Made by a program: the position numbers and the translations under genes. From assembly GCA_021772705.1 (NCBI GenBank), contig JAJFLN010000763.1:1-41262 (forward strand): a stretch of 41,262 bases of DNA, read 5' to 3'. Position 1 is the first letter of the stretch; each line of letters opens with the position of its first letter. The notes under the pieces were generated by a model. It searched no databases. It was not told the origin of the DNA and worked only from the letters and a program-made list of their open reading frames with translations. This stretch comes from Candidatus Cloacimonadota bacterium. GTDB taxonomy: Bacteria > Muiribacteriota > UBA6191 > JACPRK01. Below, in pieces: positions 170-27,256 of this stretch.

Positions 170-1036
170 GTGTCGAGAGAGTTCACATCGAGTGTCAGGA
201 GCCATCCAGGCCAGTCCGATGCCGCCATCCGGGCAGCTCTCGGTCTGGCGGCGGGAGCGACTGCAGCCGTCTTCCTCGGAACGGCCGCTCTGGTAGCCGC
301 CTTCGCCAGAGAGTGTGAGCGGGAGCGTGCCCGGTTCAGATCAACCATGCGCGGGCGGCCCGGCAGCCTCCTGTCGGCCGCTCCAGGGCTGTTCGCTCCG
401 GCATTCTCGCTCCGTGGCAACTCATCGGTTGGATCTCTGTCTTCGCGTTCAGCTCGTGACGCCTTGTTCGATCGATGCAAGGAGGGACTGCGAAACCCGT
501 CTCAGCTGGGAGAATCTCTCGCCCAGTTCCCGCTCCTGAGAGATGCCGTGAGGGCCGAGAATGGATCGATACTCGACTCCCGTCGCCCCGTCGATCCCGA
601 GAAGCTCCTGGGTGTTCTCCAGAACGTGATTCCCAGGATTGCCAGGGCCGAGGCAGGTGTCCTCAGGCAGAGCGGCCAGAAGGCCCTCTGGAGGATGGGT
701 TACCGGACCGATTCGGTGACACTTCCTGACGAGGCCCACGTGGCCGTGCGTGGCACCAACGATCAGGGGACCAGCATCTTCATCGAGTTCGACGCTTACT
801 CGGGCCAGGTCGCAGCAGACTTCTCCGGTTTCGACGGAACCAGCTGCGAGGGCGCCAGCAACCAGCTCCGTCAGGAGCTGGCTGCGGAGGGTATCCGGCT
901 GGACGGGCTTCGGGAACGGCATCATGGGAAGCAGGCTGGCGGGAACCTTGCCGGCCGACTGAGAGCTCTGTGGAACCGAGGCCGGGAGACGGTGACTCCC
1001 CCAGGTGTTCGAAACGACCTCCAGCAGGGAGAGTAG
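170..1036 (+). CDS. hypothetical protein (GTG start)
   Basis: 288-aa ORF with a GGGAGG RBS about 6 nt upstream of the GTG. Same strand as the AAA+ gene downstream. No recognisable motifs. A competing antisense ORF (449..1186) exists. Confidence 0.35.
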   Translation: MSREFTSSVRSHPGQSDAAIRAALGLAAGATAAVFLGTAALVAAFARECERERARFRSTMRGRPGSLLSAAPGLFAPAFSLRGNSSVGSLSSRSARDALFDRCKEGLRNPSQLGESLAQFPLLRDAVRAENGSILDSRRPVDPEKLLGVLQNVIPRIARAEAGVLRQSGQKALWRMGYRTDSVTLPDEAHVAVRGTNDQGTSIFIEFDAYSGQVAADFSGFDGTSCEGASNQLRQELAAEGIRLDGLRERHHGKQAGGNLAGRLRALWNRGRETVTPPGVRNDLQQGE

Positions 1037-1109: not shown

Positions 1110-2879
1110 ATGATGCCAGAATGGATTGAAGAGCTTGATGAAGCGAGGGACGGACGTTTCCCGGGAGTCGTCCTGGTCTTCAACACTCAGGACAGGGTTT
1201 TCGTCGAGAATGAACAACCCATCCGCCTTTCTCTGGACTACTTCCTGGCCCTTCACCTCACACGGTCCGGGTTCTCCGTGGCACGCGTCTCGGCCGGAAC
1301 AGGCCTGCAGCCCATGATCCCCCCGAAGGATCTGATGCCGGATCGGGACGTCCCTTCCCCATTTCCCACGGTGTCGGCAGGAACAGAGATATCCTCCGTG
1401 ATCCATTCCCTGTCCCAGCTGTTCCTGACTGCCAGATCGCCTCTGGCCCTGATTGTCGACTTCGCCGAGAATCTCGTACCCCCATCTTCCGGAGCGGGGG
1501 TTTCTTCGCCGGCTCGGGAGATGATCCTGGAGATGCTGGTGACCCTGGCCCGGGACGAGCGTGTACGCAGTCGTGGCCACCTGCTGGTGTTGATCTCGAA
1601 CGACGTGTCGGTCCATCCGTTGCTCGGTCAGTCAGGACGGTTTCGCGTCATCTCGATCGACCTTCCCGACACTCGATCACGCGATGGATTCGCCAGAGAT
1701 CTGGCCCGGGATCTGGTCGCCGCCGGGGATGAACCAGCCTCGATCCTGGAATCGGATCTCGACTTCGAAGAGTTCGCACGAATCACCGGTGGGTTGCGCT
1801 TGATCGACCTGGAGAGCCTGCTATGCACGGCTAGCACTCGAGGAAAGCCTGTCTCTCGATCCCGGGTCCGGGACGCCAAGGGGAGGAGCATTCGCAGCCT
1901 GTCGAATGGCCTGATACAGGTGCAAGATCCCCGTGGTGGATTCTCGGAGGTCGCCGGGGCATTTCACGCAAAGACCTACTTCAGGCGGTTGAAATCCCTC
2001 TGGACGAGAGGAGCTGGAAATGTCCCTCAGGGCATTCTGCTGTCCGGTGTTCCCGGTTGCGGCAAGAGTCATCTGGTGCAGGCGCTGGCCCATGAGCTGG
2101 AGACCCCGTTGCTGGTCATGAGAGGCATTCGAGAGTCCCTGGTCGGCGCGTCGGAGAGGAACCTGGACCGAGCCCTCTGGGTCACGGAGAACCTGAGTCC
2201 CTGCATCCTCTGGACCGATGAAATCGACCAGGCCATTGGCCGGAGGAGTTCCATGCCTTCCGGCGACTCGGGTACTTCCGAGAGGATGACGGCCCGAATG
2301 TTTGAGTTTTTCGGTTCCATGGCTCACCGGGGGCGAATCATCTGGGTCGCCACGACCAACCGACCGGACCTGCTTGATCCAGCACTGCTCGATCGTTTTC
2401 AGGTCGTGATTCCATTCGTGCATCCCGGTCCTCGGGAGCGGGAGGAACTCCTTCCCTGCCTGGCCAGACAGCTGGGCCGGGAGCTGGCCGAGGATGTGGA
2501 CTGCCGCGAGGTCGCCTCTCGCCCGAAACTCGAGGGCTTGACCGCTCGGTCCATTCAGGAGATCCTGGCAGCCGCGGCCTCGAGAGGCCATCGAGAGGAC
2601 GAAGGCACAGGGGCACGGATCGATCGGGAGAGCCTCGACCAGGCCGTGGCAGACTACATGCCAATGCACGATCGCAGTCACCACGAATTGATGGCTCTCG
2701 AGGCCATCCGAGCGACCTCTTTCGCCTCACTGCTCCCCTGGACCCAGGGGACAGGCAATCCGGTAGATTCCTGGCCTCCCTATCTCGACTCCGTGGTGAA
2801 CCGTGAAACTGGAAGACCGGACCCGGAGGCGATTTCACGACGGATCCGAGAGTTGAGGCAGCATCTGGGCCAGCCCTGA
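1110..2879 (+). CDS. AAA+ family ATPase (classic AAA clade) with a roughly 300-aa N-terminal region of unknown function
   Basis: Walker A GVPGCGKSHLVQALAHEL. Walker B ILWTDEIDQ. Sensor-1 and arginine-finger region VATTNRPDLLDPALLDRF. RBS AAGGAGAG before the ATG. Confidence 0.8.
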   Translation: MMPEWIEELDEARDGRFPGVVLVFNTQDRVFVENEQPIRLSLDYFLALHLTRSGFSVARVSAGTGLQPMIPPKDLMPDRDVPSPFPTVSAGTEISSVIHSLSQLFLTARSPLALIVDFAENLVPPSSGAGVSSPAREMILEMLVTLARDERVRSRGHLLVLISNDVSVHPLLGQSGRFRVISIDLPDTRSRDGFARDLARDLVAAGDEPASILESDLDFEEFARITGGLRLIDLESLLCTASTRGKPVSRSRVRDAKGRSIRSLSNGLIQVQDPRGGFSEVAGAFHAKTYFRRLKSLWTRGAGNVPQGILLSGVPGCGKSHLVQALAHELETPLLVMRGIRESLVGASERNLDRALWVTENLSPCILWTDEIDQAIGRRSSMPSGDSGTSERMTARMFEFFGSMAHRGRIIWVATTNRPDLLDPALLDRFQVVIPFVHPGPREREELLPCLARQLGRELAEDVDCREVASRPKLEGLTARSIQEILAAAASRGHREDEGTGARIDRESLDQAVADYMPMHDRSHHELMALEAIRATSFASLLPWTQGTGNPVDSWPPYLDSVVNRETGRPDPEAISRRIRELRQHLGQP

Positions 2880-2922
2880 TTGACCTCCGAGGCAGTCTCC
2901 GTGATTCTCTGGAGGATCGAAC

Positions 2923-4455
2923 TCAAACAGCTCTCAGAATGTCCTCTGAACGGGGCGGTTTGCAGTCCCGTAGCAGTCCAAGCACATTTGTCTCCGAGCC
3001 CAGGGAGGTCAGGCTCGATGCTGCCTCCTCCCTGACTCTTCTCTGCAACTCCTCCACATCCTCCGTGCTTGCCTGGCTGATGGCGTGGACGATGTCGTTT
3101 CTCAACCGGCGCAAGACCGTCAGGTTCAAACGGGAGCCGTCAATCAGACTCCCCTTGGGCACCAGATTCAATTGCTGCCTTCCATGTTGAACCCTGGACT
3201 CCCTTCCTTCCAGCAGCCTCTCCAGGTCCGACAGGGAGCAGCTGGGGACGACACTGGTGTCGAATCCCTGTCCCACCTTCACCTCTCGCAGGAGGATCTT
3301 CTGACGCAGAAAGTAGCGCCAGCAGAGTTCCAGAGCGTTGACGAGGGTGAGAAACGCACCGTTCCGCTCGTTTGCGCGCAACTGAACCGCTGCCGCCGTG
3401 ATCCGTGTCAACAGCAGGCCCCGCAGATGGTTCTCGTCAGCCAGGAAGAGCTCCTGGGTGAACTGGGCACTGTCTCGACGATCCAGCGCCAGGCGAACGA
3501 GCGCCCGGGCTGGATGATCCCGTGCCAGGTCTGGCGGCAGGGGCAGGCTTGCCAGTCGGCTCACGTCCAGCCCGAGCCAGGCCTCCAGGAATCGGCTCCA
3601 ACCAAGCACGATGGCAACCTTCGACTCTGTATCCCGGGTGAAGTATCCGGCCACACCGGGACTCCTCAAGGCCTGGTCAATACGTTCCAGCTGAAGAGTG
3701 GCTGCTCGATAGTCTCCGCGGTCAAAGAGGCTGCAAGCAGAATCGAACTGGCTGATCTGGAAGATCTCGAAGGGATCCGGAAGCTGCCGAAGATACTCGG
3801 AGCCGGTCATGGGCTTGCGCTTACGGGGATCAAAAACCTCGAAATCGGTGTAGAAGATGCTCGCCCCCGGCAGCACCATGCCACTGGTGAAGGAACCGGC
3901 CACCATGGGCTTCTTGGATCCCGAAACGTCAATGGCGATCTCCCGAGCTGCCGTGTCCTCCACCTGCTTCCGGACGGCCTGAAAGGTCTCGGCCGGGTCC
4001 GAACCAGCCACGGCGGTCCAGTGGATGCTGGGCGGCTCAGACCAGACAGTGTGGCCCCTCTCATATGCCTCCAGCAGAAGAACGGCCAGCTTCTCTGCCA
4101 GCTCTCCCGTCTCGGTCGTGGCCAGAATTGCAATGTAGGGGGTTCGCACGGACGTCAGGAAGAGACAGACTGGCTCGTAAGAGAATCCGAGGAGTGAGAT
4201 GGCGAGGTCGAAGTCGCGATCCGGCACGTCTGGATCTCGAACCAGCCTGGGGTAATCGGCTCGCAGCAACGTTCGATAGACGGAGCCCACCAGGGGAAGG
4301 ACTTCACGAACATAGAACGAGACGCCGTCCTCGCTCCTGGCGGCCTCGGAGCGTTCGTCCTCGAGGCGTGCCAGATCAGCGAAAAGCTGATTCCAGTCCG
4401 TCTGATCATCCAGACCTTGCAGCCGATCGATCCGATCTTGAAGCTGAAGCTCCAT
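2923..4455 (-). CDS. CARF-HEPN protein (Csm6/Csx1 family cOA-activated RNase candidate)
   Basis: N-terminal CARF signatures: ISLLGFSYEPVCLFL (the LGxSxxP strand), YIAILATTETGE, and the ligand-pocket motif IDVSGSKKPMVAGSF (compare D-[IVL]-T-G-G-T-K-x-M-S). C-terminal HEPN Rx4-6H motif in LRRLRNDIVHAIS. GGAGG RBS upstream of the ATG. Confidence 0.7.
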   Translation of the reverse strand: MELQLQDRIDRLQGLDDQTDWNQLFADLARLEDERSEAARSEDGVSFYVREVLPLVGSVYRTLLRADYPRLVRDPDVPDRDFDLAISLLGFSYEPVCLFLTSVRTPYIAILATTETGELAEKLAVLLLEAYERGHTVWSEPPSIHWTAVAGSDPAETFQAVRKQVEDTAAREIAIDVSGSKKPMVAGSFTSGMVLPGASIFYTDFEVFDPRKRKPMTGSEYLRQLPDPFEIFQISQFDSACSLFDRGDYRAATLQLERIDQALRSPGVAGYFTRDTESKVAIVLGWSRFLEAWLGLDVSRLASLPLPPDLARDHPARALVRLALDRRDSAQFTQELFLADENHLRGLLLTRITAAAVQLRANERNGAFLTLVNALELCWRYFLRQKILLREVKVGQGFDTSVVPSCSLSDLERLLEGRESRVQHGRQQLNLVPKGSLIDGSRLNLTVLRRLRNDIVHAISQASTEDVEELQRRVREEAASSLTSLGSETNVLGLLRDCKPPRSEDILRAV

Positions 4456-4866: not shown

Positions 4867-6057
4867 TTAGCCTGACAGCACTCCCGTAGGATGGCAGAGA
4901 AGCCGGTGCAGAATCTGATGAAACTTGCGTCGGTCAGCTTCATCATCGTTCCCGGGAGAAGCAAGGTTTCGGATCGTGGCGATAAAGGCTCGGGCCTCCT
5001 CCGTGCTGCACTCGGCCTTCCGGCGCACCGCATCCAGATCCAGATTCTTCAGGACACTCAGGACCGGTGGTGGCGGCGGTGATGCGGGCTCGAGCGAGGC
5101 CTTTCGGGCATGCAGATCCCGTACACGGTCCAGTCCGATCTCTCCAATCCGTTCTATCATGGCCTCGTGACCGACGAAACCGAGGTAGGAAGCCAGTTGT
5201 TGCAGCCGGCTCCGCACTGGCCGACTCTCGAAGGCGGCCTCCTTCTCATCCTCCAGCAGACGAATCTCCTCTGCAGCCTCATGGTCGGGGATAGACTTCA
5301 GAAGGCCGGCAATCCAGCATCTGATCTGGAACAGCAAGGGACGCGCCGAGTGCTGAGTAGCTTCCTCGAGAGATCCGGCTGAATTCAGGGGGTCCTTGCT
5401 CTCTTCGTCTATTCTGCGTTTGAGGTCCAGTGGATCTACATCTCCCTGATCGAAGGAGTCGGAAGTTGCGCGAAGGAGCCTCTCGAACTTCTGAATGTCG
5501 AGTCGTCCCTTGGCCCAGCGCCGACCAGCGTTGATACCCAGGGCCCGGATGAAGGCGCCAGGGTGCTCCGGAAGAGGAACTCCCAGCAGCAACCGCTTGT
5601 TTCGAAAGCGGTCCACGTCGACTGCGATCTCCTGAAGACAATCCTTGAGTTCATCCTCCGGGGAATGCAGGTACCCGATTGTTGCCTTACGGAGGCGGAA
5701 GTACGCCTGGCGAATGCCGGAAGCACCAGCCTGACCAAACATGAGAGTGTCCCCTCCTCTGTCAGGCATCTCGGCAGTCCAACTGGCATACATGGCCATC
5801 AACTGATACGAGCTGGCGGTTCCACCGGACCTGACTTTACTGGCAGTCCTGGCAGGGTCGCCGGGTGCCTCCCCGGCGGCGCCCAGGCCGCCGGCCCTTT
5901 CGGTCGACGTGGTATCTTTCGGTTCCCTGTCAGGCTCCAGAGCAGCTTCAACCTGGGACTCAAGCTGACCCGGATCCTCGTCCCAGTCGACCGACTCCTT
6001 TACTGAAGTGATCCGCGGGGCTAGACGGATGGCCCGGGGCTTGCGATCGCTGCTCAC
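4867..6057 (-). CDS. hypothetical protein (last gene of a 5-gene coupled operon)
   Basis: 396-aa ORF. Its start overlaps the upstream gene by 4 nt (ATGA). No recognisable motifs. Confidence 0.5.
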   Translation of the reverse strand: MSSDRKPRAIRLAPRITSVKESVDWDEDPGQLESQVEAALEPDREPKDTTSTERAGGLGAAGEAPGDPARTASKVRSGGTASSYQLMAMYASWTAEMPDRGGDTLMFGQAGASGIRQAYFRLRKATIGYLHSPEDELKDCLQEIAVDVDRFRNKRLLLGVPLPEHPGAFIRALGINAGRRWAKGRLDIQKFERLLRATSDSFDQGDVDPLDLKRRIDEESKDPLNSAGSLEEATQHSARPLLFQIRCWIAGLLKSIPDHEAAEEIRLLEDEKEAAFESRPVRSRLQQLASYLGFVGHEAMIERIGEIGLDRVRDLHARKASLEPASPPPPPVLSVLKNLDLDAVRRKAECSTEEARAFIATIRNLASPGNDDEADRRKFHQILHRLLCHPTGVLSG

Positions 6058-7241
6058 TTTTCCGGCCTCCTCCAGTTGATCTCGAACTCCATGGCCTTGT
6101 CGGGCTCCCGGAGCATCTCATTCAGAATGAGAGCTGCGGGATGCCTTTCAGGGAAGCTCGACCGGGCCTCCGCCACCAGCTCTCGGGCGTCCTCGATGGC
6201 ACCGTCCTCAAGCTCCAGCGCGACAGAGAAGTACCAGCAGTTCGCGTTGTACGGGTCCAGCTCGCGGGACTGCTGGGCAGCCCGGCGGCTTGCTTCCAAC
6301 CAGTCCGCAGCGCCGGACTTTCTGGCATCCTTGCGAATCTGACGAGCCTTCTCGAGGTACTTCTGGGCCGCTCCGACGTCGCTCCAGAGAGAGGACAGTG
6401 GCCAGAGAAGCCGGTACTCGATCAGGTTCGTGACCATGTCGATCGATCTCTCACGGGCCTCCTTCGGCAGGAGCTTGAAGAGCAGGTCGCTGGCAAAGGC
6501 CTTCAGAAGCGTATTCTCTATGTTCCAGCCCGGCTGTTTCCATTCGCCCAGCTCGGCCTCGGCGCACCAGGCCTCCACGAGGCGCTGATTCACCCTGCCG
6601 AGCCGGAAGAAGAGTCGCGTGCATTTCTCCACGTTTCCTTTCATGAGACCCGAAACGAGCTTGTCCGGGTCCACCTTCGTAGGGAATGTGGCTGCCGTCG
6701 TCAATCGCTTGTCAGTATTGTTCCCGTTCAGATAGATCACCATCTGCTCGGACCCGGTTGGAATGAACGATGGCTCAACAAATGGAACCTGCAACAGGGG
6801 GCGGTACAACTTGTCCATGACCGAGAAGCAGGTGGCGTTGAGCGGCTTCTGCAGGCAGGCTGTCATGGGATCCTGCAGCTGCTGCAAGAGTGTGCGTTCA
6901 TTCTCCAGAGTTGCCTTCTGGCTTAGCAGGATCACTGCGAGCCTCGGAAATCGCCGGCGAAGATCCTGAAGGGCTTCAATCCCACTGGGGTATGTGGGAT
7001 CGACAGGGTCTTCGAACATGAGATCCATCAGGACCAGATCCGGAAGTGGAGCAGCAGTTTCCACAGCATGCCGCATATACTCGAATGCCTCGGTGGGAGT
7101 CGTCTGCGGTTCCAGGATGTCAAGTTCATAGGGGTAAACGTTTGACAGCTTATCCCATAGAAACTCCAGGTCTTCCACGAGACGCTGATCCTCCCACTGG
7201 TCATCGACAATCATCACTCGACAGGTTGTCTTGGCCGTCAT
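6054..7241 (-). CDS. response-regulator receiver (REC) domain protein with a helical, TPR-like C-terminal region
   Basis: N-terminal CRVMIVDDQ ... DLVLMDLMFED ... AVILLSQK pattern, which is typical of a CheY-like receiver with an Asp in the LMDL strand. 4-nt overlaps with both neighbouring genes. Confidence 0.6.
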   Translation of the reverse strand: MTAKTTCRVMIVDDQWEDQRLVEDLEFLWDKLSNVYPYELDILEPQTTPTEAFEYMRHAVETAAPLPDLVLMDLMFEDPVDPTYPSGIEALQDLRRRFPRLAVILLSQKATLENERTLLQQLQDPMTACLQKPLNATCFSVMDKLYRPLLQVPFVEPSFIPTGSEQMVIYLNGNNTDKRLTTAATFPTKVDPDKLVSGLMKGNVEKCTRLFFRLGRVNQRLVEAWCAEAELGEWKQPGWNIENTLLKAFASDLLFKLLPKEARERSIDMVTNLIEYRLLWPLSSLWSDVGAAQKYLEKARQIRKDARKSGAADWLEASRRAAQQSRELDPYNANCWYFSVALELEDGAIEDARELVAEARSSFPERHPAALILNEMLREPDKAMEFEINWRRPEK

Positions 7242-8086
7242 TTTACCGCCCTCCTTCGCACCCTCAGTGCCAGGGTCTCCAGGCCTCCCAGGAGCGTGTC
7301 CCGGTGGCTCAGGAAATCCAGGATCGCCCGACAGGCTGACTGGCTTGCGGACAAGTTCGCCAATGCGATCTCGGTCACGCCGCGAGTACTCTCTCCCACT
7401 CTACGGTACAGTTCAGCCAGGTGCAATTGCTCCGTCACGCCGGAGAGATCCATGGCCATTGTCTCCTCGAAACGCATCGCAATGGAGCCCGACACGAGCC
7501 TGTTCTCGGCTCTGGCGCTTTGCAGATCGGCCCGGGCCTCTTCCAGATCACCGGGGCTCAGGTGCCGGTCTCGCCGTGCCGCTTCCTCCACCCTGAGAGA
7601 GAACAATCGGCTCGAGTTCCGGCAATCATGCAGCAGCGTGCCCAGTCGACGGGATGTGGCATCGCCGAGGCTCCGGACCTCCGTCGGTGCCAGGCTGTCT
7701 CGCAATGCACGACGCAGATCATCCGGTGCCGGAGATTCCATTCGACCGAGTTCCTGTAGCCGCTGTCGCAACCGGTCCACCGGGACGGGCATTCGCTCGT
7801 ACAGGCACGCGCCCAGGCGGACAAGTTGAGCCTGCAAGGGAACTGCCAGGAATCGGGCCGGCACCTCGGCTCCCAGTACCAGAACCCCGGAGCGGACGCC
7901 CTGGGCGAGCCGGATACTCAGCAATGGAGCCGTGATGGCAGCTTCCGTTCCGGCAGCGCCGGGGGCAACAAGGATGTGACACGCTGATGCTGCCCCGAGC
8001 ATCGCCGCTGCGCCCAGTTGGTGGCGAGCCAGCACCTCACTGAGTACATCATGGAGCAAGCGGGAGGAGCAGTGAATCTGGGTCAC
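7238..8086 (-). CDS. hypothetical protein
   Basis: 282-aa ORF. Translationally coupled to its neighbours (4-nt overlaps at both ends). Confidence 0.5.
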   Translation of the reverse strand: MTQIHCSSRLLHDVLSEVLARHQLGAAAMLGAASACHILVAPGAAGTEAAITAPLLSIRLAQGVRSGVLVLGAEVPARFLAVPLQAQLVRLGACLYERMPVPVDRLRQRLQELGRMESPAPDDLRRALRDSLAPTEVRSLGDATSRRLGTLLHDCRNSSRLFSLRVEEAARRDRHLSPGDLEEARADLQSARAENRLVSGSIAMRFEETMAMDLSGVTEQLHLAELYRRVGESTRGVTEIALANLSASQSACRAILDFLSHRDTLLGGLETLALRVRRRAVK

Positions 8087-8556
8087 TTCGCCTCCTCTCC
8101 TGCGCTCCGGCCAGCCCTGCGACAGCGGGATCGCCGTGAAAAACGTCGAGCACGGAGACGCGACTCCGGTCTCATCGTTTCAACGTGACTGTCTTCTGAT
8201 GCGGCCTCTGGGTTCTGGAGATAACCCGGCCAGATGGGAAGTCGAATCTCATGCACGGTCTCACTACGCGCGGCAGACCACTCCGGCCGGTGCTGTTCCA
8301 GTTGCTCCAGAGAGAAAGCCAGCAGAAGCAGGAGACCGGAACGCTCCGGAGTTCGTTCATCAACTGTCTGCTCGATCAGTCTCATACCAGCTCGGTCATC
8401 GAGGCCTCGGATCGCCCCCACCCGGACCTGTGTCCCTCCGGCGACGGGAAAGGAGATCCTGCGGCGATCATCGTCGTGAAAGCGCAGGGCTGCCAGGATC
8501 GCTTTGAAAATAGACTCTCTGGCTGACATGGAAGTTGTATTCGCTGGACACTTCAT
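8083..8556 (-). CDS. hypothetical protein
   Basis: 157-aa ORF coupled by 4-nt overlaps. Confidence 0.45.
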   Translation of the reverse strand: MKCPANTTSMSARESIFKAILAALRFHDDDRRRISFPVAGGTQVRVGAIRGLDDRAGMRLIEQTVDERTPERSGLLLLLAFSLEQLEQHRPEWSAARSETVHEIRLPIWPGYLQNPEAASEDSHVETMRPESRLRARRFSRRSRCRRAGRSAGEEAK

Positions 8557-9497
8557 CGTGACGGCTCCTCGAACCCGGTGTCCCCTTGCACCTCGGCTGT
8601 GAATCGGAGCATGTGAGCATCCACCCTGCGAGTCAACTCTTCAAGCGCCGCCCACCAGGCAGTCCCCAGAGAGGAGCCATCCGGGCTCTCGGCGTTGACC
8701 CCTTGCAGGTCTCGTTGCCAGTGGAGCCGGTACGACTCGGTCATTCCGCCGTCCTCGAGTAGGCTGTCTATTCCTGGTCCGATGGGCAGAAGGAGATAGG
8801 CAACTGCCGCAATTCCGTGCGTCGTTGACCCTCCTGCCGAGTCTGCCAATGAGTCGAGTGTGAGGGCGGAGCGGCAGATTGCATTCCGCTGTTGCCAAAG
8901 ATCCCTACACAGGACTAGAATCCGTTCCCGGTCTTCAGTCTCTACCTTGCCATCCAGCAGGTTCGGCAGTACGAGTCCGGCGGCGGACAGGCCCATGAGC
9001 AGAGTGGTCGAAGCGTTCATGACCCTCTCCGAAGTGGAGGTCAAGACCTGAGCCAGATCGACCGGTCCCGGAGACAGGGTAGGGTTCATCTGCAGGCGGT
9101 CTCTCATGCTTCGGACCAGGGCGAGGGCCTCCTGATCGGAGAATGCCCAGCCACGAGGACCGCGAACCAGCCTGGGGATGATGTCCTCGTTCGGTTCCAG
9201 CTCTCCCCCGGTCCAGACCACTCCCGCTGCGTGGGCGTTGCCGCGGAGAATCTGAAGACCCAGGTCCGATTGCCCGAGCATGGCATTGTCTGTCACGATC
9301 AGTATCGCGTTGGGAAATGTCGGTGGTTCATTCCGCCACCCACCACAAGGAGCCTCGATGCGAATGGAGCAGTCACCGTTTGATGCTGCCAGCGAAGACA
9401 TTTCCGCGAACAGCTCTCTCTTCACAGCGCTGTCGTGAATGACGACTATCTCTTTCAGATTCCCTGTCACGGTTACCTCACCTCCAGAAGGAGCCAA
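8553..9497 (-). CDS. hypothetical protein (first gene of the minus-strand operon)
   Basis: 314-aa ORF followed by a 4-nt overlap with the next gene. About 320 bp of noncoding sequence lies upstream. Confidence 0.5.
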   Translation of the reverse strand: MAPSGGEVTVTGNLKEIVVIHDSAVKRELFAEMSSLAASNGDCSIRIEAPCGGWRNEPPTFPNAILIVTDNAMLGQSDLGLQILRGNAHAAGVVWTGGELEPNEDIIPRLVRGPRGWAFSDQEALALVRSMRDRLQMNPTLSPGPVDLAQVLTSTSERVMNASTTLLMGLSAAGLVLPNLLDGKVETEDRERILVLCRDLWQQRNAICRSALTLDSLADSAGGSTTHGIAAVAYLLLPIGPGIDSLLEDGGMTESYRLHWQRDLQGVNAESPDGSSLGTAWWAALEELTRRVDAHMLRFTAEVQGDTGFEEPSR

Positions 9498-9821: not shown

Positions 9822-10325
9822 ATGTTCAGGGAGGTCAGCATGCCCGGGCCCGTGAAGGGGCGTCTCTACTGCCACAGCATGCCCGGTAGATTCGAGCCCC
9901 TGGATGAGACGATTGAGCTCATTCAGATGAAGTGCATTCGCCGCCTGGTCAGCCTGACTTCAGTTGAGGAGATCAACAGCAAGTCTCCCTCCTATGCCCG
10001 ATTGCTCCGTTCCGGCGAGTTCGAGTGGGAGCAGGAGGCCTTTCCAGTAGCCGACTTTGGCATCCCATCGGATCGAGGTGCGTTCCTCGCGTTTGTGACC
10101 GGAGTTGCTCGCCGACTGGAAGATGGAGATAACGTGCTGCTCCACTGTGGCGCCGGGGTCGGCCGCACCGGTACGGCAGCAATGTGCGTCCTCCTGGTTC
10201 TGGGGCTGTCCCGTCCTCAAGCCCGGACCCACGTCTCTCGTGCTGGCGCGGGACCGGAGACCGCTTCCCAGGAAGAGCTGGTCACCTGGGTCGAGAAACG
10301 GGTCTCTGGGTCACTCGAGCGATAG
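9822..10325 (+). CDS. Cys-based protein phosphatase (dual-specificity / PTP-like)
   Basis: Catalytic P-loop VLLHCGAGVGRTG (HCX5R[ST]). AAGGAG RBS 8 nt upstream of the ATG. Confidence 0.7.
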   Translation: MFREVSMPGPVKGRLYCHSMPGRFEPLDETIELIQMKCIRRLVSLTSVEEINSKSPSYARLLRSGEFEWEQEAFPVADFGIPSDRGAFLAFVTGVARRLEDGDNVLLHCGAGVGRTGTAAMCVLLVLGLSRPQARTHVSRAGAGPETASQEELVTWVEKRVSGSLER

Positions 10326-11298: not shown

Positions 11299-13659
11299 TC
11301 AGCGCAACTTGAGCAGGGCCTCTTCCTCGCGTCGAAGTTGACGCTCGGCACGGAGTCTCGGGATTGCGTACTGATCCTGAGATGCTTTACGGCATTCCCC
11401 GGATCGCTTCGCCGTCGGGGACTCGGGCCAGGGCGTCGGGCTCACGGATGCGATGGCCGGGGCACCATTCTCTCCGAGAAACCTTGCCAGGCCCTGGTAG
11501 TTGGGAAGAGTGACCAGATCCTGAGGAGATATCTGATCCCCGTAGTAAGCCGAGAGCTTGCCGGCATCCTGGTGGCCAACTCGAAAGGACATGAGGCTTC
11601 CCACGTTTCCCAGTATGGCATCGACCAGCCGATCCTGGATACGCCCTCCCCTCAGCTGATCCAGGTACTGATTGGCGAGGATCAGACGGACACCGAACTT
11701 TCGGCCCTCTGCGAGCAGGACCGGCACGCTTTCGGTGACGAAATTCTGAAACTCATCGAGGTAGAGAGACAGGGGTTTTCTTCGGGCAGCGGGCACACTG
11801 GACCGCCCCAGGAGTATCCGTTCCAACCTCATGAGCAGCAGCGTACCCAGGAATCGGGTCGTCACTTCTCCAAGTTCACCCACGGGCAAGCGAATCAACA
11901 AGATCTTGCCGTCCTCCATGATTCTCGCCGGATTGAAGCGTGTCTTCGGCTGGCCCACGATCAGGCGGACATCGCGCCGGCTGATCAAGACATCGAACTT
12001 CGACTTGAAGTAGGCCATGCTTCCGCCGTCGCTGGTGCCACTGGCCATGCGAATGATCTCGTCGGCGGCGTCACGGAGGACCGGATTCTCGATCGACTCC
12101 CTGACTGACTTCAGGAGCTTCCTCCCCGACACGATCTCGGCAAATGCCAGCAACGTGGGGGGGCTGGGTATCTTCCCCAGATCGCCCAGGTGAAATGCTA
12201 GCAGCAGGGCGTTCCGTACAATGTACTCGAACACGGGGCCAACCATGTCGACCGGCCATGTCCGATGGAAGATAGTGAGGAACTCCTCGCAGATCAGGGC
12301 CCTCTCCAGTTCCTCGTCGCAGTCGAGGGGGTTGAGACCGACGGGACTGTGCCGTTGTGTCGGATCGAACAACGCCACATCGGCGACGCGATTGGCAGGC
12401 ATGGTTCCCATGACCTGATCGATCAGATCGCCGTGGGGGTCAATGACGCAGACTTGCTGACCGGCAGCGATGTCCTGCATGATCAGGTTGTGCAAGAAAG
12501 TTGACTTGCCCGTTCCGGTCTGACCCATGACGTGGATGTGACGAAAGCGCATCTTCTCTCCGAGGGCGACGGTGCGCGATCGATCAGGATTCCCGTTGTA
12601 GCCCAGGACCCAGCCCTGTACCGGAATCTCTTCCGACGCTGGGATGAAACGAGGTCTCCTGGGAGGCAACCCTTCTTCCGGCTTTCGAGTGAAGGGCAGA
12701 CGAAATCTGCCACGAGCTTGCTCCGGCGTGAGCAGGAAACTCAGGCGTCGCAGATCCGGGGTCGGCGGTTCCACCTCTTCGATGTCAGAGCCTGGCAGCA
12801 GAGGACGGAAAGTACCGGCACGACTCTCTTGCCATACCTCTCCGGAGAAGGCCGCTGCACGAGACGATGGAATCAGCTGCAGTTGACTCTCCAGGGCAGA
12901 GAGCGTGGCGGCCGGCGAGGGCCCCTCGGACTCGATAACCGCTCTGGAAAGAAACAGCCTCCGTCTGCTGCCCAGGAGATCGCCGAGAACCTTCGACTTT
13001 GGCCCATCGTCACCGGATGCTGACGCCGGTTGCCCTTCTTTGCTCCCGGCGCACACCCTCTCGGCCGTGAGATAGCGTTCGCATTCCTGCTGCTCCCATG
13101 GGTAGAGCCGGGTTGGGCGAAAGGCAAGGCGCAAGCGACACCGGGATCGTTCCGCGAGCAGCGCCCTCACCAGAGTGATGAACTCGACCCCGTCTCCCGG
13201 GCTCGAGTTTCTCGCTGGACTCCCTTCCCCACCGGAGACACTCTGGATCGAGCCGAGCTCCGTGGAGAGGGCCGGGCTGAAGGGTCTTGCCAGGGTTGCT
13301 GCTTCCACGGGATTGTCGACAATGGTGAACTGATAGAACCGTGCCGGAAACTGCAGGGAGGCATCCATGGCGGCGGCCAGGTCATCCAGCCCCCCCCCGT
13401 GAGGGGATGACAGTCCAGCGATCACGGCGATCCGAACTCGGGATTTCCAGGGAGCCGCCAGATCTGGAAGGCCAGTGTAGTGCAACTCGATCCAGCGTCC
13501 GTCGCTCAGATCCCACATCCTCTGCAGTGTATCGTCCTGAGCCGACAGGATCGATGAGATCTCGGAGCCATCGCTAGTGTAGCCCAGGGAAGTGAGCTCG
13601 AAGACGACCGCCGGGACTCGGGTCTCCTCGGGCAATTGTCTGCCCCCCTTCCGTGCCAC
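11299..13659 (-). CDS. HerA / TraD(VirD4)-like P-loop ATPase of the FtsK-HerA superfamily, with a roughly 330-aa N-terminal extension
   Basis: Walker A HVMGQTGTGKSTFLHNL, then VCVIDPHGDL, ALFDP and NPL. Walker B SLYLDEFQNF and ILANQYLDQL. Confidence 0.75.
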   Translation of the reverse strand: MARKGGRQLPEETRVPAVVFELTSLGYTSDGSEISSILSAQDDTLQRMWDLSDGRWIELHYTGLPDLAAPWKSRVRIAVIAGLSSPHGGGLDDLAAAMDASLQFPARFYQFTIVDNPVEAATLARPFSPALSTELGSIQSVSGGEGSPARNSSPGDGVEFITLVRALLAERSRCRLRLAFRPTRLYPWEQQECERYLTAERVCAGSKEGQPASASGDDGPKSKVLGDLLGSRRRLFLSRAVIESEGPSPAATLSALESQLQLIPSSRAAAFSGEVWQESRAGTFRPLLPGSDIEEVEPPTPDLRRLSFLLTPEQARGRFRLPFTRKPEEGLPPRRPRFIPASEEIPVQGWVLGYNGNPDRSRTVALGEKMRFRHIHVMGQTGTGKSTFLHNLIMQDIAAGQQVCVIDPHGDLIDQVMGTMPANRVADVALFDPTQRHSPVGLNPLDCDEELERALICEEFLTIFHRTWPVDMVGPVFEYIVRNALLLAFHLGDLGKIPSPPTLLAFAEIVSGRKLLKSVRESIENPVLRDAADEIIRMASGTSDGGSMAYFKSKFDVLISRRDVRLIVGQPKTRFNPARIMEDGKILLIRLPVGELGEVTTRFLGTLLLMRLERILLGRSSVPAARRKPLSLYLDEFQNFVTESVPVLLAEGRKFGVRLILANQYLDQLRGGRIQDRLVDAILGNVGSLMSFRVGHQDAGKLSAYYGDQISPQDLVTLPNYQGLARFLGENGAPAIASVSPTPWPESPTAKRSGECRKASQDQYAIPRLRAERQLRREEEALLKLR

Positions 13660-15770
13660 TAGTGGATCTCTCCTTTTGTCGTGGAGCGCGGCCGCGTGCG
13701 ATCTGGCACCCAGGAGAGGCGGCCTCTGCTCGCAACCAGACGGTAGGCAGCCACGCCTTCCGTGAGGGTGCTCCAGAGTGGGACCAGAACTAGCTGCTCC
13801 ACCAGAGTCTGAAGCCGCTCACCACTGAGCCCACTTGCCTGGACCCGTTTGGCCACTGCTTCGATGGCCGCCTCGTCGCAGGTGAGTACAATCCCTCGCT
13901 CACGATGCAGCCGTTCCACGGCGATCTTCTGAATCCTCCTGCGTACGAGTTCGGCGTATTCCTCGTCGGTCAATGGATTGAATGGAACCACCAGAAGAGT
14001 CCGGAGGAGCGCCAGTTCGTCGGAAAGAAGCGAAAGCGCCCCCTTCTCTTGCTTGCCCGGTTTGCCCGTGTCTTCCCTCTGCAGAAAACCGAGCTGTGTT
14101 GTGGAGATCGGCCCTGTCGTGTCAACCGAGAGGATGAAGATGGCCCGCCGGACGAGACCTGCCCACTCACCTGTGCCGGAGTATCCGTTGTTCAAGAGAT
14201 TGGCGAGGGCTGTCAGTACAGCCGGAGGCGCCTGATCACAGTGCTCCAGGTGAATCACCGAGAAGGGCTTCTGCATCAGAAAACCGGAGAGCTGGCCCGG
14301 CGCTGGATCCCCTTCCGGGATACCTAGCAGGTACGCCGGGTTCCCTGGAATCGATGCCAGGTCCACCAGCAACAGCCTGTCAGGTCCGTAGAGCTCCATT
14401 GCAATGGCTCGTGCCATGGTGTTCTTGCCGACGCCAGCCGGGCCCGCGAAGAGAAAGGCCGCATCGGGGCGCTCGGGTCGGGAGCGGATGCCTTCGGGAC
14501 TACAGCGGGCAGCGATGGCTCGCGCCACCTCCATGCACGCTGGTCGCTGAGAGCCAACGTACTCGTATAGCGTGTCCGATAGTCTCTGCGGGTCCCGGTA
14601 ACAGGGCTGCTCCACGCGCTGGATCGGAAGGCCTGCAGTTCTGGCCGCAACGGCTCTCAGATCTTCAGCCGATGGTGCCCGACCCTCGGCTTCAGCCAAA
14701 GCGGCAGCTCCCTCGAGAAGCCTGAGCGCCGACTCCGGCAGGGCCGGGCTCTTGATGTAATGATCCGCCAGGACGACGGCCTCATCCAGGTTGAAGGATT
14801 CCGGAGCCTTCCCGATCCAGTCCTCCACTGGCCCTCTCCACTGCTGAAAAGCAGAGCGGCACTCGGTACGACCCATGGACCGGACATAGACCAACCTTGC
14901 CCTGAAGGGCAGAGACCCGGGCACCAGAGTCAACTTCTCCAGTTCATGAGACGTGGTGAGCCAGAGCATGCATCCTCGATCGATGCAGAGAGCTGCCAGG
15001 GAAGGGGGCATGGCACCGTAGAGCTCCGACAGATCGCCGTGAATCAGGAGGTGGCCCAGGGAGGCCGCGATCCTCAGGTCCTCCAGGACCGCCATGGCCG
15101 ACTCGCCGGTCAGGGCAGTCGTGAGACGGCTCGTAGCTTGCCAGACCGAGCCGGAGGGGTACTGCTTCATCCGGCCACTGACGAAGTTAGGAAGCATCAC
15201 TTCGTGGAGACTACCCTGCTCGACTCCCGGGCCGGCGACGACGATGCAGGAGGTCTCAGCTCCAGGCCGGGTTGCGTGAGCCATCTCCAGGAGCTCCCGT
15301 TCTCTTCCCACGGGAGGCAAACGGGGCACACCGAAGAGTGACTGGCGCCGGATGAATCCGGTCAAGTTCTCTCCGGCGAGCCTCCGCAATGAGGGGGCCA
15401 GCCCGACGGAACGTGCGCGATCGGGCTCCTCGGCATTCAGTGCCACGATCTGATGGATCAGCTGTTGCACGTTCACCGGCAACGTCATCCGGCCAACGAG
15501 CGACCCGTCGATGGCAGACGTTGATGGTAGTGGTTCGCCATCAAGATAGTCCGCCAGGGCCATTCCAGTCTTCGCTGCCAGCGCTGCCGTATCCAGAGTC
15601 AGTGCATCCTGGAAGTGGAGTCTGCCACCGGCCGTGTCCGCATCGGCCAGAGCCAGAAAGCCCAGCTCAACAAGAGGTGTCGTATCGAGTGGGTTGTTCA
15701 ATGCAGCCCGACGGAGTTCGAGGGTTCTCTCCGGCAGAGAGCTGGCCCTGCTGATCGTTTCCTGCTTCAC
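13659..15770 (-). CDS. ClpA/ClpB-like double AAA+ protein with degenerate Walker motifs
   Basis: D2 region AFLFAGPAGVGKNTMARAIAMELYGPDRLLLVDLASI resembles the Clp D2 P-loop (GKN instead of GK[ST]). The Walker-B-like region is VIHLEHCDQ. The D1 P-loop is degenerate (IVVAGPGVEQGS). 1-nt overlap with the HerA-like gene. Confidence 0.6.
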   Translation of the reverse strand: MKQETISRASSLPERTLELRRAALNNPLDTTPLVELGFLALADADTAGGRLHFQDALTLDTAALAAKTGMALADYLDGEPLPSTSAIDGSLVGRMTLPVNVQQLIHQIVALNAEEPDRARSVGLAPSLRRLAGENLTGFIRRQSLFGVPRLPPVGRERELLEMAHATRPGAETSCIVVAGPGVEQGSLHEVMLPNFVSGRMKQYPSGSVWQATSRLTTALTGESAMAVLEDLRIAASLGHLLIHGDLSELYGAMPPSLAALCIDRGCMLWLTTSHELEKLTLVPGSLPFRARLVYVRSMGRTECRSAFQQWRGPVEDWIGKAPESFNLDEAVVLADHYIKSPALPESALRLLEGAAALAEAEGRAPSAEDLRAVAARTAGLPIQRVEQPCYRDPQRLSDTLYEYVGSQRPACMEVARAIAARCSPEGIRSRPERPDAAFLFAGPAGVGKNTMARAIAMELYGPDRLLLVDLASIPGNPAYLLGIPEGDPAPGQLSGFLMQKPFSVIHLEHCDQAPPAVLTALANLLNNGYSGTGEWAGLVRRAIFILSVDTTGPISTTQLGFLQREDTGKPGKQEKGALSLLSDELALLRTLLVVPFNPLTDEEYAELVRRRIQKIAVERLHRERGIVLTCDEAAIEAVAKRVQASGLSGERLQTLVEQLVLVPLWSTLTEGVAAYRLVASRGRLSWVPDRTRPRSTTKGEIH

Positions 15771-16391: not shown

Positions 16392-16461
16392 GTGGATAGA
16401 GCGCGCTCTCTAGAAGTCGTGGGGCAACAAACCGGTGCCCGGACAAGGAAGGGAGCGAGCC

Positions 16462-26822: not shown

Positions 26823-27256
26823 CAGACATGGTGGTTGAACTGGGCGCCTGCTACTGTTCCCTGAAACGGGAGAGAACCGGAAGCACGTCGAAGCAAGAAG
26901 AAGCGTGGCGGTTCCTGCCTTCCGATGGCCAGGGTGTAGTGGTGCTCTCCGACGCAGTTCGCCGGTTCAAGCCGGGCGTTTCAGAGGGCCTTCTGGTCGA
27001 GGCTGATGTTACGCAGGGCTCGATGACGACCCTGGTCCGGATGAGTCCCGATGGATGGCAGGCCTGGCAATGGCGAGAAACGGACGGCAGTTCACACTGT
27101 TATGTGGAGAGGGACTACCTGTCTTCCGAACCCTCGCGAGACGCTCCTTCCCTCCTACGTTATCGTCACTACTGGACTCTCGAAGAGGATGATGGGATTC
27201 GAGTCTGGCACCCGGTCGGCTCCCGTTTCTGTGGCTTTGTGGAGGATGTCAAATGA
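26819..27256 (+). CDS. small protein of unknown function (by position a candidate small-subunit analogue)
   Basis: 145 aa. ATGA-coupled between the RAMP genes. No recognisable motif, and it does not look like an obviously helical Cas11. Confidence 0.4.
   Translation: MTDMVVELGACYCSLKRERTGSTSKQEEAWRFLPSDGQGVVVLSDAVRRFKPGVSEGLLVEADVTQGSMTTLVRMSPDGWQAWQWRETDGSSHCYVERDYLSSEPSRDAPSLLRYRHYWTLEEDDGIRVWHPVGSRFCGFVEDVK

Follow-up and report, generated by a model that had tools for sequence, protein, structure and literature searches.

The gene at positions 2,923 to 4,455 of the window (the whole stretch of 41,262 nucleotides that was analysed) encodes a real and very divergent CARF-HEPN protein of the Csm6 family, of the T. 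thermophilus Csm6 (TtCsm6) type, which sequence and structural model predict to be a ribonuclease. In our best explanation, to which we give a probability of roughly 80%, this ancillary RNase stands next to an AAA+ ATPase that belongs to a separate operon, one recurrently located near type III CRISPR and CARF genes, and the ATPase is not its dedicated partner. The Csm6 identity is an ordinary result; the link between the operon and CRISPR is the interesting lead.

Both open reading frames named in a sequence-only reading of this DNA are real, with products of 510 aa (the RNase) and 589 aa (the AAA+ protein), and they are arranged tail-to-tail as it had described, with 43 bp between the stop codons. 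Its distance of about 17 kb to the cas genes also holds, the start of cas10 at 21,873 being 17.4 kb from the start codon of the RNase gene. All CARF peptides that it quoted are found in the translation, namely LGFSYEP (residues 88-94), ILATTETGE (residues 109-117), and DVSGSKKPM (residues 176-184; nucleotides 3,901-3,927 translate to VSGSKKPMV), as is the HEPN peptide RNDIVH (residues 452-457, nucleotides 3,085-3,102). Promoter and terminator prediction around the gene pair gave nothing informative.

Table 1. Coordinates of the features of the window and the basis of each assignment.
Feature	Coordinates	Strand	Basis
Homologue of operon gene g3, weak DUF2997-like C-terminal region	170..1036	+	blastp, hmmsearch
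Tandem Cdc48/NVL-like AAA+ ATPase, D1 degenerate, D2 active; gene 4 of conserved operon	1110..2879	+	PF00004 residues 309-435; AF2; Foldseek
Csm6-like CARF-(helical linker)-HEPN ribonuclease (predicted), 510 aa	2923..4455	-	PADLOC, AF2, Foldseek, family profile
HEPN catalytic motif R452-N-D-I-V-H457	3085..3102	-	Translation; profile alignment to TtCsm6 R415/N416/H422
CARF (Rossmann) domain, about residues 80-228; ligand-contact residues (by mapping) S92, T113, E115, K182, Y202, R213	3772..4218	-	Mapping onto TtCsm6
Five overlapping or abutting genes without known function, upstream of the RNase gene, same strand	4867..9497	-	ORF layout
HerA/VirD4(TrwB)-like ATPase	11299..13659	-	TrwB_AAD_bind 1.5e-11, mad8 3.6e-16
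Second CARF protein: CARF (Cas_NE0113/Csx1-type) + HATPase_c (GHKL/histidine-kinase-type)	17320..18867	+	PF09623 1e-05, PF02518 3.2e-08, PADLOC Csx1 5.6e-09
Type III-D effector module: HD-less cas10 (palm SAGDD), cas7, cas5/csx10, cas7-cas7, small ORF, large multi-cas7	21873..29496	+	PADLOC

The best PADLOC matches of the 510-aa protein are CARF1--CARF_HEPN (1.3e-26) and Csx1/Csm6 (4.9e-23), which cover residues 85 to 476, among 11 CARF1--CARF_HEPN, Csx1, and Csx1-Csm6 models matched at 1e-26 to 5e-06. The sequence-only reading had tied its call to CARF profile searches returning something, and with CARF1 profiles matching at 1.3e-26 the call survives. No Pfam family, CARF and Csm6 families included, is matched at E ≤ 0.1, and TIGR02710 (Cas02710) gives 26.5 bits and misses its curated cut-off of 83.9, so that it takes broader profiles and the fold to recognise the RNase as a divergent member. 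An exhaustive HMMER scan collected 455 homologues, the closest of which is 30% identical; the protein is a singleton in a 90%-cluster search, and a word-index homologue search returned solely the RNase itself.

The AF2 model of the RNase is confident over its whole length including the HEPN domain (pLDDT = 89.8, pTM = 0.84). Foldseek places TtCsm6 first (E = 6e-14 to about 1e-13 over about 520 to 531 columns), followed in order by EiCsm6, StCsm6', Cam1, Card1, and Can2, and the alignment to Csm6 extends through the C-terminal (HEPN) domain. The RNase family profile matches TtCsm6 (PDB: 5FSH) at 1.3e-37 over profile positions 17 to 464, with the RN..H column included. A phmmer comparison of the C-terminal half (residues 280-510) against the 150 best homologues found no pairwise similarity, and the HEPN call therefore rests on profile, motif, and predicted fold.

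The model shows a beta-alpha Rossmann fold at residues 84 to 225, with structural matches to the CARF domains of Csm6, Cam1, Card1, and Can2 and to ring nucleases. The characteristic motifs are G-x-S after beta-1, D-x-(T/S)-G-x-K-K after beta-4, and a C-terminal R-N-xxx-H. When compared at the eight published cA4-contact residues of TtCsm6 (PMC10897365), the RNase keeps six: S60, T81, E83, K137, Y161, and R172 of TtCsm6 correspond to S92, T113, E115, K182, Y202, and R213, respectively, and the K182 and Y202 columns are invariant in 61 of 61 aligned homologues. These six positions suggest that the protein, as a putative homodimer, binds cyclic oligoadenylate (cOA) and that its predicted non-specific RNase activity is stimulated by it. 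T59 and N164 of TtCsm6 are replaced by F91 and F205, which makes self-limitation by ring-nuclease activity uncertain. In the HEPN domain, registered on TtCsm6 by HMMER profile alignment, R452/N453/H457 align with R415/N416/H422, and alignment A1 shows no exception to the R and the H. The R-x(4-6)-H dyad, whose fate in homologues had been named as a check on the call, is present in 127 of 133 full-length homologues; the closest ones carry R-x6-H and the window RNase R-x4-H. Profiles, fold, residue mapping, and this conservation fully support the Csm6/Csx1-like CARF-HEPN assignment of the sequence-only reading.

The cas genes 17.4 kb away form a type III-D module (PADLOC: Cas10 2e-60, Cas7_IIId 1.3e-35, Cas5_IIId 2.1e-42, and two more Cas7_IIId at 7.5e-82 and 3e-124), and the palm motif SAGDD marks this as a type III neighbourhood with a cyclase-competent Cas10, at a distance from the RNase larger than usual. 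The RNase is not the sole CARF protein here, since about 3 kb upstream of cas10 there is a CARF-HATPase_c gene, whose product found no relatives in a word-index search. Searches of the whole window for CRISPR arrays, tRNAs, and Rfam families found none. One of the five genes upstream of the RNase gene (6054..7241) carries a REC receiver domain (Response_reg 4.2e-05) and TPR; the other four have no Pfam or PADLOC matches, and 4867..6057 has no PDB match. It is possible that these five genes and the RNase gene form one operon across a 410-bp gap.

It could be argued that the 510-aa protein is a relic or a non-nuclease regulator (for example a ring nuclease only, or a signal sponge) that is no longer an effector, given its 17 kb from cas10, its extreme divergence (singleton at 90% clustering, at most 30% identity otherwise), and another CARF gene much closer to cas10. 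Against this, the reading frame is unbroken, the family alignment shows no variation in the R452/N453/H457 and K182/Y202 columns, the fold is confident over the full length including HEPN, and the intervening genes resemble accessory genes rather than unrelated housekeeping genes. We consider a relic very improbable.

As a working effector, the RNase, built of N-terminal helices, a CARF sensor, a helical linker, and a HEPN nuclease, would respond to the type III-D complex 17 kb away: on binding target RNA, the Cas10 palm would make cyclic oligoadenylate, most likely cA4, which the CARF dimer would bind via S92, T113, E115, K182, and R213, and this binding would allosterically rearrange the R452/N453/H457 site of HEPN. 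Non-specific RNA cleavage by the activated enzyme would then continue for as long as the signal persists; the CARF domain, in which Y202 is conserved and the N164 equivalent is not, may be what removes the signal. The product of the local Cas10 is not certain, because a type III-D2 system has been found to produce SAM-AMP and not cOA (PMC13294483).

The AAA+ protein has more than 100 full-length homologues. Its AF2 model (pLDDT = 84.2) contains two AAA+ modules in tandem, and Foldseek aligns it with NVL, p97, Rix7, and Drg1 over about 600 columns (E about 1e-20, TM about 0.6), in agreement with the Cdc48-like option of the "FtsH or Cdc48-like core" proposed earlier. The N-terminal 300 aa had been regarded as uncharacterised and as a possible partner or regulator; the region is instead a degenerate D1 AAA+ domain in which an invariant N24-T25-x-D27 (N-T-x-D) replaces the P-loop, so that nucleotide-binding motifs are not present in both domains. 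Walker A occurs once (GVPGCGKS, residues 313-320, nucleotides 2,046-2,069), and D2 has intact Walker A/B, sensor-1 N416, and R428 (Arg finger). The pore-loop aromatic position is Leu here and Trp in 14 of 20 relatives. The model has no N-terminal substrate/adaptor-binding domain; its first element is the alpha/beta core of D1, with a strand at residues 18-22, and p97 is longer by about 150-200 aa. An identity as the anti-phage ATPase IetA/IteA was considered and rejected: NF042959 scores 74.2 bits against a cut-off of 510 and covers only the generic AAA+ core (residues 297-491), which IetA/IteA models match at 2.5e-21 and 1.1e-20 with FtsH/Cdc48 models scoring higher. The operon proteins scanned gave no match to the IetS protease partner, the neighbours being g1-g3 and DegT.

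The pairing of AAA+ and RNase as a two-gene unit does not stand, as the AAA+ gene is the fourth of a conserved operon, g1-g2-g3-AAA+-DegT, the last gene encoding a DegT-type PLP enzyme (aminotransferase). This order is colinear in 4 of 4 first neighbourhoods and, with few exceptions, in 27 loci from GTDB species, and DegT follows the AAA+ gene in 46 of 49 other loci. The operon is widespread and uncharacterised, occurring in Gemmatimonadota, Acidobacteriota, Armatimonadota, Nitrospirota, Desulfobacterota, Burkholderiales, and other groups. The window copy consists of g3 and AAA+ only; it is cut by the contig start and has no DegT, and no DegT or g2 remnant is found anywhere in the window. The g3 assignment comes from blastp (3.8e-19), which pairs the protein with g3 of L003 and with the N-terminal portion of a fused g3-AAA+ protein of L004, and from hmmsearch (g3 1.8e-22); DUF2997 is matched at E = 0.016. 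Apart from this weak DUF2997 match of g3, the proteins g1, g2, and g3 have no PADLOC, Pfam, or PDB-sequence matches. A VWA domain guessed for g1 from the pattern D-x-S-G-S...T...D was supported by no search. The family that most often accompanies the operon is a HerA/VirD4-like ATPase, with homologues (E < 1e-20) nearby in 13 of 64 loci and in 1 of 57 controls. The AAA+ protein would serve this operon as a Cdc48-like unfoldase with a degenerate D1 and an active D2, often with the HerA/VirD4-like ATPase encoded after DegT. In the literature searched for the module (DegT/AAA+/CARF, DUF2997 + AAA, Cdc48 + type III CRISPR) no description was found, the nearest being the CoCoNuT paper.

Operon loci and control loci were compared with equal total flank, the loci being scanned by whole-protein AAA+ alignment, as an N-terminal-only alignment is too variable. 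Any CRISPR/CARF marker (arrays, RT-Cas1/Cas2, CARF genes) lies within 10 kb in 15 of 64 distinct operon loci vs 1 of 57 controls (p = 3e-4), where the controls are distant matches of the AAA+ scan from other taxa and the CARF/Cas markers were drawn partly from the operon loci themselves. CRISPR arrays alone lie within 10 kb in 7 of 64 operon loci and 0 of 57 of these controls (p = 0.014), with about 1% expected from genome-wide array density, and the CRISPR/CARF association is replicated in an independent metagenome subset (6/21). The co-localisation spans several phyla and five CARF effector types (Csx1, CARF-RelE, Card1, CARF-Lon, and RtcR-like); Armatimonadota-type loci (L013, L123), for instance, have the order array-Csx1-operon. 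In two loci (L024 and L028), RtcR-like (PF06956) CARF-AAA-HTH sigma-54 activators are encoded immediately upstream of the operon, and a strong -24/-12 promoter lies between the activator gene and g1 (nt 1948 in L024, nt 6596 in L028); three further loci have strict sigma-54 sites ahead of g1 (0.17 expected). It had been suggested to check whether homologues of the AAA+ protein recur next to CARF proteins: they do so in about a quarter to a third of the loci, beside several CARF effector types and not specifically Csm6. It is thus plausible that a link to type III/CARF signalling holds for the module and not for this particular gene pair.

One way to read this enrichment is that the operon is a functional type III/CARF accessory module wired to cOA or RNA-damage signalling, and that the adjacency of RNase and AAA+ is functional. 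For example, RtcR-like CARF sigma-54 activators could induce the operon on 2',3'-cyclic-phosphate RNA ends left by HEPN RNases such as Csm6, and the Cdc48-like unfoldase and the PLP enzyme would then run a second-tier response or recovery. In independent lineages, genes for the five CARF effector kinds immediately precede the operon on its strand, which favours this reading together with the RtcR-like activators, the sigma-54 promoters, the excess over controls, and the published precedent (PMC11090510) of defence operons that contain RtcR-like CARF regulators and Cdc48-like ATPases with a dead D1. What weighs on the other side is that about two thirds of the loci with adequate flanks have no CRISPR/CARF gene within 10 kb, that the operon co-varies with no single CARF family, that g1 and g2 are not visible and DegT is absent in the window copy, and that one copy (L172) lies on an integrative element with FtsK/WXG100, primase, and integrase. 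We regard such a functional wiring as doubtful, and only tentatively propose that the operon, often followed by the HerA/VirD4-like ATPase, is a previously undescribed type III CRISPR/CARF accessory module providing a new downstream response, with an RtcR-like switch in some genomes.

A coincidence, in which unrelated defence or mobile-element cargo genes came to lie tail-to-tail in a defence island and the operon has nothing to do with CRISPR signalling, has in our judgement slightly less than an even chance. RNase and AAA+ are not co-transcribed because they are convergent; the arrangement seen in the window (no DegT, Csm6 type) is unique among the 64 loci; defence genes generally cluster in islands; and a CARF gene is present in only 2 of 7 unbiased picks of operon neighbourhoods, leaving 5 without. 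The partial ascertainment of markers, the controls from other taxa, these unbiased picks, and the mobile-element context at L172 all fit plain co-residence in defence islands or mobile elements. The array counts speak against pure chance, as do the recurrence of type III-specific parts (RT-Cas1, CARF effectors) rather than a random defence mix and the tight co-directional adjacency in several phyla. Since the operon lies repeatedly next to type III adaptation genes, arrays, and CARF effectors, the RNase/AAA+ adjacency is best taken as a recurrent module-level association, consistent with our preferred reading of an ancillary Csm6-family RNase beside a gene of a separate operon.

The operon occurs beside type III arrays, RT-Cas1, and five kinds of CARF genes at least about ten times as often as expected. 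Should this link be functional, cyclic-oligoadenylate or RNA-damage signalling would gain an arm made of an unfoldase and a PLP enzyme, and there would be a testable candidate for the cell response that follows collateral RNase activity. The RNase, for its part, stretches the Csm6 family to very divergent sequences while keeping the TtCsm6-type fold, and its altered ring-nuclease site and R-x4-H motif, at about 20% identity to TtCsm6, may help to separate cA4-sensing residues from self-inactivation residues.

Among known systems, the RNase is closest to TtCsm6 (TTHB152; PDB: 5FSH, 8JBB, 8JH1), a cA4-activated, self-limiting CARF-HTH-HEPN RNase, with which it shares domain order, predicted fold, and an end-to-end profile match. 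It differs from TtCsm6 by R-x4-H in place of R-x6-H, by a longer N-terminal helical segment, by F205 in place of N164, which is implicated in cA4 cleavage, and by a gene that stands 17 kb away from type III-D genes instead of adjoining a III-A/B module. With CARF1-clade Csx1/Csm6 proteins it shares profile matches and motifs, but it falls below the curated thresholds. The AAA+ protein shares the D1-D2 arrangement and active-type D2 motifs of the eukaryotic and archaeal type II AAA+ proteins p97/Cdc48, NVL/Rix7, and Drg1/Afg2; at 18-20% identity, it differs from the p97/NVL group in lacking the N-terminal adaptor domain and the P-loop lysine of D1. With IetAS/IteA it has only the generic AAA+ core in common.

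The SpoVK/Cdc48-like tandem AAA+ proteins of CoCoNuT systems, in which only the C-terminal domain keeps Walker A/B, are likewise encoded in defence operons (Bell et al. 2024, PMC11090510). The operon AAA+ resembles them in having Walker A/B in the C-terminal domain only and in its links to CARF proteins, RtcR-like regulators, and HerA/FtsK-type ATPases. This likeness is one of architecture and context: the operon partners are different (g1, g2, DUF2997-like g3, and the DegT-type PLP enzyme), and no McrBC/CoCoNuT core, TerY-P triad, or glycine-zipper protein was detected with the operon. In RtcR-regulated operons, a CARF-sigma54 activator controls rtcBA RNA repair (PMC7790460, PMC9650030). The window shows no RtcR-like activator, as the contig ends before the operon start is reached. 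L024 and L028 resemble RtcR-regulated operons in their RtcR-family activator and -24/-12 promoter, but the regulated genes are not rtcA/rtcB.

The 510-aa protein encoded convergently with the AAA+ gene is a new member, strongly diverged in sequence, of the Csm6 family of CARF-HEPN RNases, an assignment that is in itself ordinary. It matches no Pfam family, and its score with the NCBIfam model TIGR02710 (CRISPR-associated CARF protein), 26.5 bits, stays below the 83.9-bit cut-off. The PADLOC CARF-HEPN and Csx1/Csm6 models match it at 1.3e-26 to 4.9e-23, one of them spanning residues 85-476. Searching 5.8 billion clusters by word index returned nothing beyond the protein itself; an exhaustive HMMER scan recovered 455 relatives, with a top identity of 30% and nearly all aligning to the CARF part, and no pairwise similarity was found between its C-terminal half and the best 150 relatives. 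Despite this C-terminal divergence, RN..H stays in register across the family alignment, whose invariant columns are D176, K181, K182, Y202, D204, P228, W293, R452, and H457. The nearest homologs have R-N-x5-H (e.g., RNNHVLIH), the spacing of Thermus thermophilus Csm6 (TtCsm6), and with R-x4-6-H allowed the dyad is present in the C-terminal half of 127 of the 133 homologs of at least 400 aa. The family profile matches TtCsm6 (PDB: 5FSH) end to end, motif column included (1.3e-37). AF2 predicts the structure with confidence over its whole length (pLDDT = 89.8, pTM = 0.84), and in a Foldseek search of PDB the model retrieves full-length TtCsm6 structures at the top (E = 6e-14, ~520-530 columns, TM = 0.5-0.59), followed by EiCsm6, StCsm6', Cam1, Card1, and Can2. 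The sequence-only reading had called the protein Csm6/Csx1-like and had named dyad loss or empty CARF profile searches as arguments against the call; the dyad is kept, the CARF-HEPN profiles match, and every CARF and HEPN peptide it quoted was located in the translation.

The TtCsm6 residues for cA4 recognition and cleavage have been assigned by a structural study (PMC10897365). Six of these eight are conserved in the RNase (S60 as S92, T81 as T113, E83 as E115, K137 as K182, Y161 as Y202, R172 as R213) and two differ (T59 is F91 and N164 is F205), while HEPN residues R415/N416/H422 correspond to R452/N453/H457. Because the closest solved CARF relatives bind cA4 and six of eight contacts are kept, cA4 is the most likely candidate activator, with a probability of roughly 0.55. 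By analogy with TtCsm6, where ligand binding reorganizes the HEPN site for non-specific RNA cleavage (PMC10897365), cA4 binding would reorganize the R-N-H site and lead to non-specific RNA cleavage. Self-limitation by a CARF ring-nuclease activity is uncertain, since the position equivalent to N164 is Phe in 44/61 members of the subfamily. The Cas10 of the window (21873..23276, + strand, 468 aa) is short and HD-less with SAGDD replacing GGDD in the palm, and with this motif retained, a nucleotide second messenger is its probable product. A published type III-D2 system that makes SAM-AMP/SAM-AMP2 for a CorA effector, not cOA (PMC13294483), is a caveat on the nature of that signal; with two CARF genes present and no CorA gene detected in the window, cOA is favored.

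Features of the window and of other loci carrying AAA+ homologs (locus coordinates are local)
Feature	Location	Strand	Match or basis
g3 homolog	170..1036		3.8e-19
AAA+ ORF, 589 aa	1110..2879	+	ORF layout
GVPGCGKS, sole Walker A of the AAA+ protein	2046-2069		translation
CARF-HEPN RNase ORF, 510 aa	2923..4455	-	ORF layout
RNDIVH, HEPN motif of the RNase	3085-3102		translation
VSGSKKPMV of the RNase	3901-3927		translation
Five tightly packed genes with overlapping stops/starts, upstream of the RNase gene	4867..9497	-	
REC(receiver)+TPR protein, in the operon beside the RNase gene	6054..7241	-	
Dual-specificity/'Swiss Army Knife' PTPase	9822..10325	+	3e-14
HerA/VirD4(TrwB)/mad8-like ATPase	11299..13659	-	
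ClpB-like AAA protein	13659..15770	-	AAA_2/AAA_lid_9, weak
CARF (Cas_NE0113/Csx1-type) fused to HATPase_c (histidine-kinase/GHKL)	17320..18867	+	
SPFH/Band-7 protein, just upstream of cas10	20072..20863	+	5.5e-14
Type III-D effector module	21873..29496		PADLOC
PcfJ-like protein	30007..30726	-	weak
Lon_C protease with C-terminal CARF like that of RtcR	L001, 1-1431	-	weak
Lon_C protease with C-terminal CARF like that of RtcR	L032, 3988-5484		weak
RtcR-family CARF-sigma54 activator, directly upstream of operon	L024, 128-2081		
RtcR-family CARF-sigma54 activator, directly upstream of operon	L028, 4914-7262		

The stop codons of the convergent RNase and AAA+ genes are 43 bp apart and the RNase gene starts 17.4 kb from cas10; both ORFs match the sequence-only description exactly. 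The effector module contains Cas10 (2e-60), Cas7_IIId (1.3e-35), Cas5_IIId (2.1e-42), and two further Cas7_IIId matches (7.5e-82 and 3e-124); no CRISPR array, tRNA gene, or Rfam family was matched in the whole window. Apart from one REC domain, nothing in Pfam, PADLOC, or PDB matches the five genes upstream of the RNase gene, which may form one operon with it across a 410-bp gap. For the second CARF protein, the fusion to HATPase_c, the word-index search gave no relatives and PDB only a weak "sensor protein" match; its segment GVAHEGLNLIREL looks like an H-box. Together with the REC-TPR protein it could form a cOA-to-two-component relay. The PTPase, SPFH/Band-7, and PcfJ-like genes are possible additional accessory or mobile-element genes of the island. 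The HerA-like gene overlaps the stop of the upstream ClpB-like AAA gene.

The AAA+ protein is, on its predicted structure, a D1-dead Cdc48-like unfoldase encoded in its own five-gene operon. For its core (PF00004, residues 309-435) the top-scoring models are FtsH/Cdc48/PAN, with IetA/IteA matching too, all far under equivalog cut-offs, and the AF2 model (pLDDT = 84.2) superposes on the tandem D1-D2 unfoldases NVL, p97/Cdc48, Rix7, and Drg1 (Foldseek, ~600 columns, E ~1e-20, TM ~0.6), in agreement with the FtsH/Cdc48-like core first proposed; a Cdc48-type N domain is missing. More than 100 full-length relatives of ~590 aa from many phyla share 34-49% identity, and the N-terminal 300 aa are conserved as well, with an invariant N-T-x-D at the P-loop position, a D-(Y/F)-A-(D/E) Walker-B-like strand, and an L-I-S strand. 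The superposition and the N-T-x-D motif identify this region as a predicted degenerate, non-catalytic D1 domain, in place of the uncharacterized partner or regulator suggested from sequence. D2 retains intact Walker A/B motifs, sensor-1 N416, and Arg finger R428; the aromatic position of pore loop 1 (residues 341-348, window 2130-2138, ESLVGASE) is occupied by Leu, whereas Trp is found there in 14/20 relatives.

In the first four unrelated neighborhoods the AAA+ gene is the fourth of a co-directional operon, g1 (~250 aa), g2 (~420-450 aa), g3 (~280-300 aa), AAA+, and a DegT/DnrJ/EryC1-type PLP enzyme, and this order is kept across 27 GTDB species and 60 metagenome contigs. Where 1.5 kb or more of sequence is available downstream, DegT follows AAA+ in 46 of 49 loci, the window being among the three exceptions; in the window the operon is interrupted by the contig start, and no DegT or g2 remnant was found anywhere in the window. 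With its Leu pore loop and absent DegT, the window copy might be decaying or specialized. No Pfam, PADLOC, or PDB sequence matches g1-g3 except a weak DUF2997 in g3, which recurs at one and the same position in two members. A single 901-aa fusion of g3 and AAA+ (L004, nt 8001-10706) suggests that g3 acts physically together with the ATPase. Of the RNase/AAA+ pair first proposed, the convergent layout stands, but the AAA+ gene belongs to this separate conserved operon, and the junction was seen only in the window among the loci examined.

The operon tends to adjoin type III adaptation modules, arrays, and CARF proteins in multiple lineages, and this tendency is robust. Loci were de-duplicated at 90% AAA+ identity, and neighborhoods of distant AAA+ relatives served as controls, with 710 kb of flank in each set. 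At least one CRISPR/CARF marker was found no further than 10 kb away in 15/64 family versus 1/57 control loci (Fisher p = 3e-4); CARF/Cas markers were partly derived from family loci, controls come from other taxa, and flanks reach at most 10 kb. When 8 kb or more of flank is required, the counts are 14/41 versus 1/42 (p = 1.3e-4); they are 7/64 versus 0/57 for arrays alone, a marker free of ascertainment bias (p = 0.014), and 6/21 in the metagenome subset, which played no part in marker derivation; CARF genes also occur in two of seven neighborhoods picked solely by length of available sequence. The check suggested with the sequence-only reading, whether AAA+ homologs recur beside CARF genes, comes out positive for a substantial minority of loci, and the CARF type varies. 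CARF-RelE with CARF-Lon or Card1 lies directly upstream (L001/L118), Card1 downstream (L005), and in L013/L098/L116/L123 an array, a Csx1 CARF-HEPN gene (PADLOC 1.3e-66), and the operon follow co-directionally. L028 has RT-Cas1, Cas2, an array, a CARF4-like protein, an RtcR-like CARF-sigma54 activator, the operon, and a HerA-like ATPase; L024 has RtcR (PF06956), the operon, and an array; L029 has Cas7 (III-D), RT-Cas1, Cas2, and three arrays surrounding the operon. Cas1/RT-Cas1/Cas2 lie upstream in L017/L095, and arrays occur in L009/L107. The proteins of L001/L032 that pair a weak Lon_C match with a CARF domain are CARF-Lon type effectors adjoining the operon.

Co-residence in defense islands or mobile elements would explain this proximity, with a likelihood just short of even. 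The operon of L172 (nt 2456-19048) is carried by an integrative mobile element, as its flanking genes indicate: FtsK/SpoIIIE/EssC-like and WXG100 genes upstream, and a T4CP-like ATPase, an AEP primase, and a tyrosine integrase beside smpB downstream. The commonest neighbor is a HerA/VirD4(TrwB)-like ATPase (13/64 family vs 1/57 control loci), usually just 3' of DegT and homologous to the HerA-like gene of the window. In L013/L088 (nt 10162-15197), 3' of DegT, a HEAT-repeat protein run is found with a MoxR-like AAA_5 ATPase and a DUF2201/VWA-type protein; this run, in Armatimonadota-type loci, resembles NTP-dependent conflict systems. A functional link of the operon to CARF/RNA-damage signaling is the somewhat less likely alternative, and the proximity fits it as well. 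Sigma-54 activators lie upstream in 6/64 family versus 0/57 control loci, and strong -24/-12 matches stand between activator and g1 in L024 (TGGCAC-N5-CTGCT, 1948) and L028 (TGGCAT-N5-TTGCT, 6596), the background rate being 0.09 per kb; strict sites precede g1 in three additional loci (0.17 expected). The RtcR-family activators and these matches imply that operon transcription in L024/L028 would be under CARF control.

The searchable literature yielded no account of a DegT-containing module. Extended CoCoNuT operons carry a SpoVK/Cdc48-like tandem ATPase in which the C-terminal domain alone is active, along with RtcR-like CARF regulators and FtsK/HerA-type ATPases (PMC11090510). The partner genes of that ATPase are unlike those of the g1-g2-g3-AAA+-DegT operon; the ATPase itself is the nearest published analog of the AAA+ protein.
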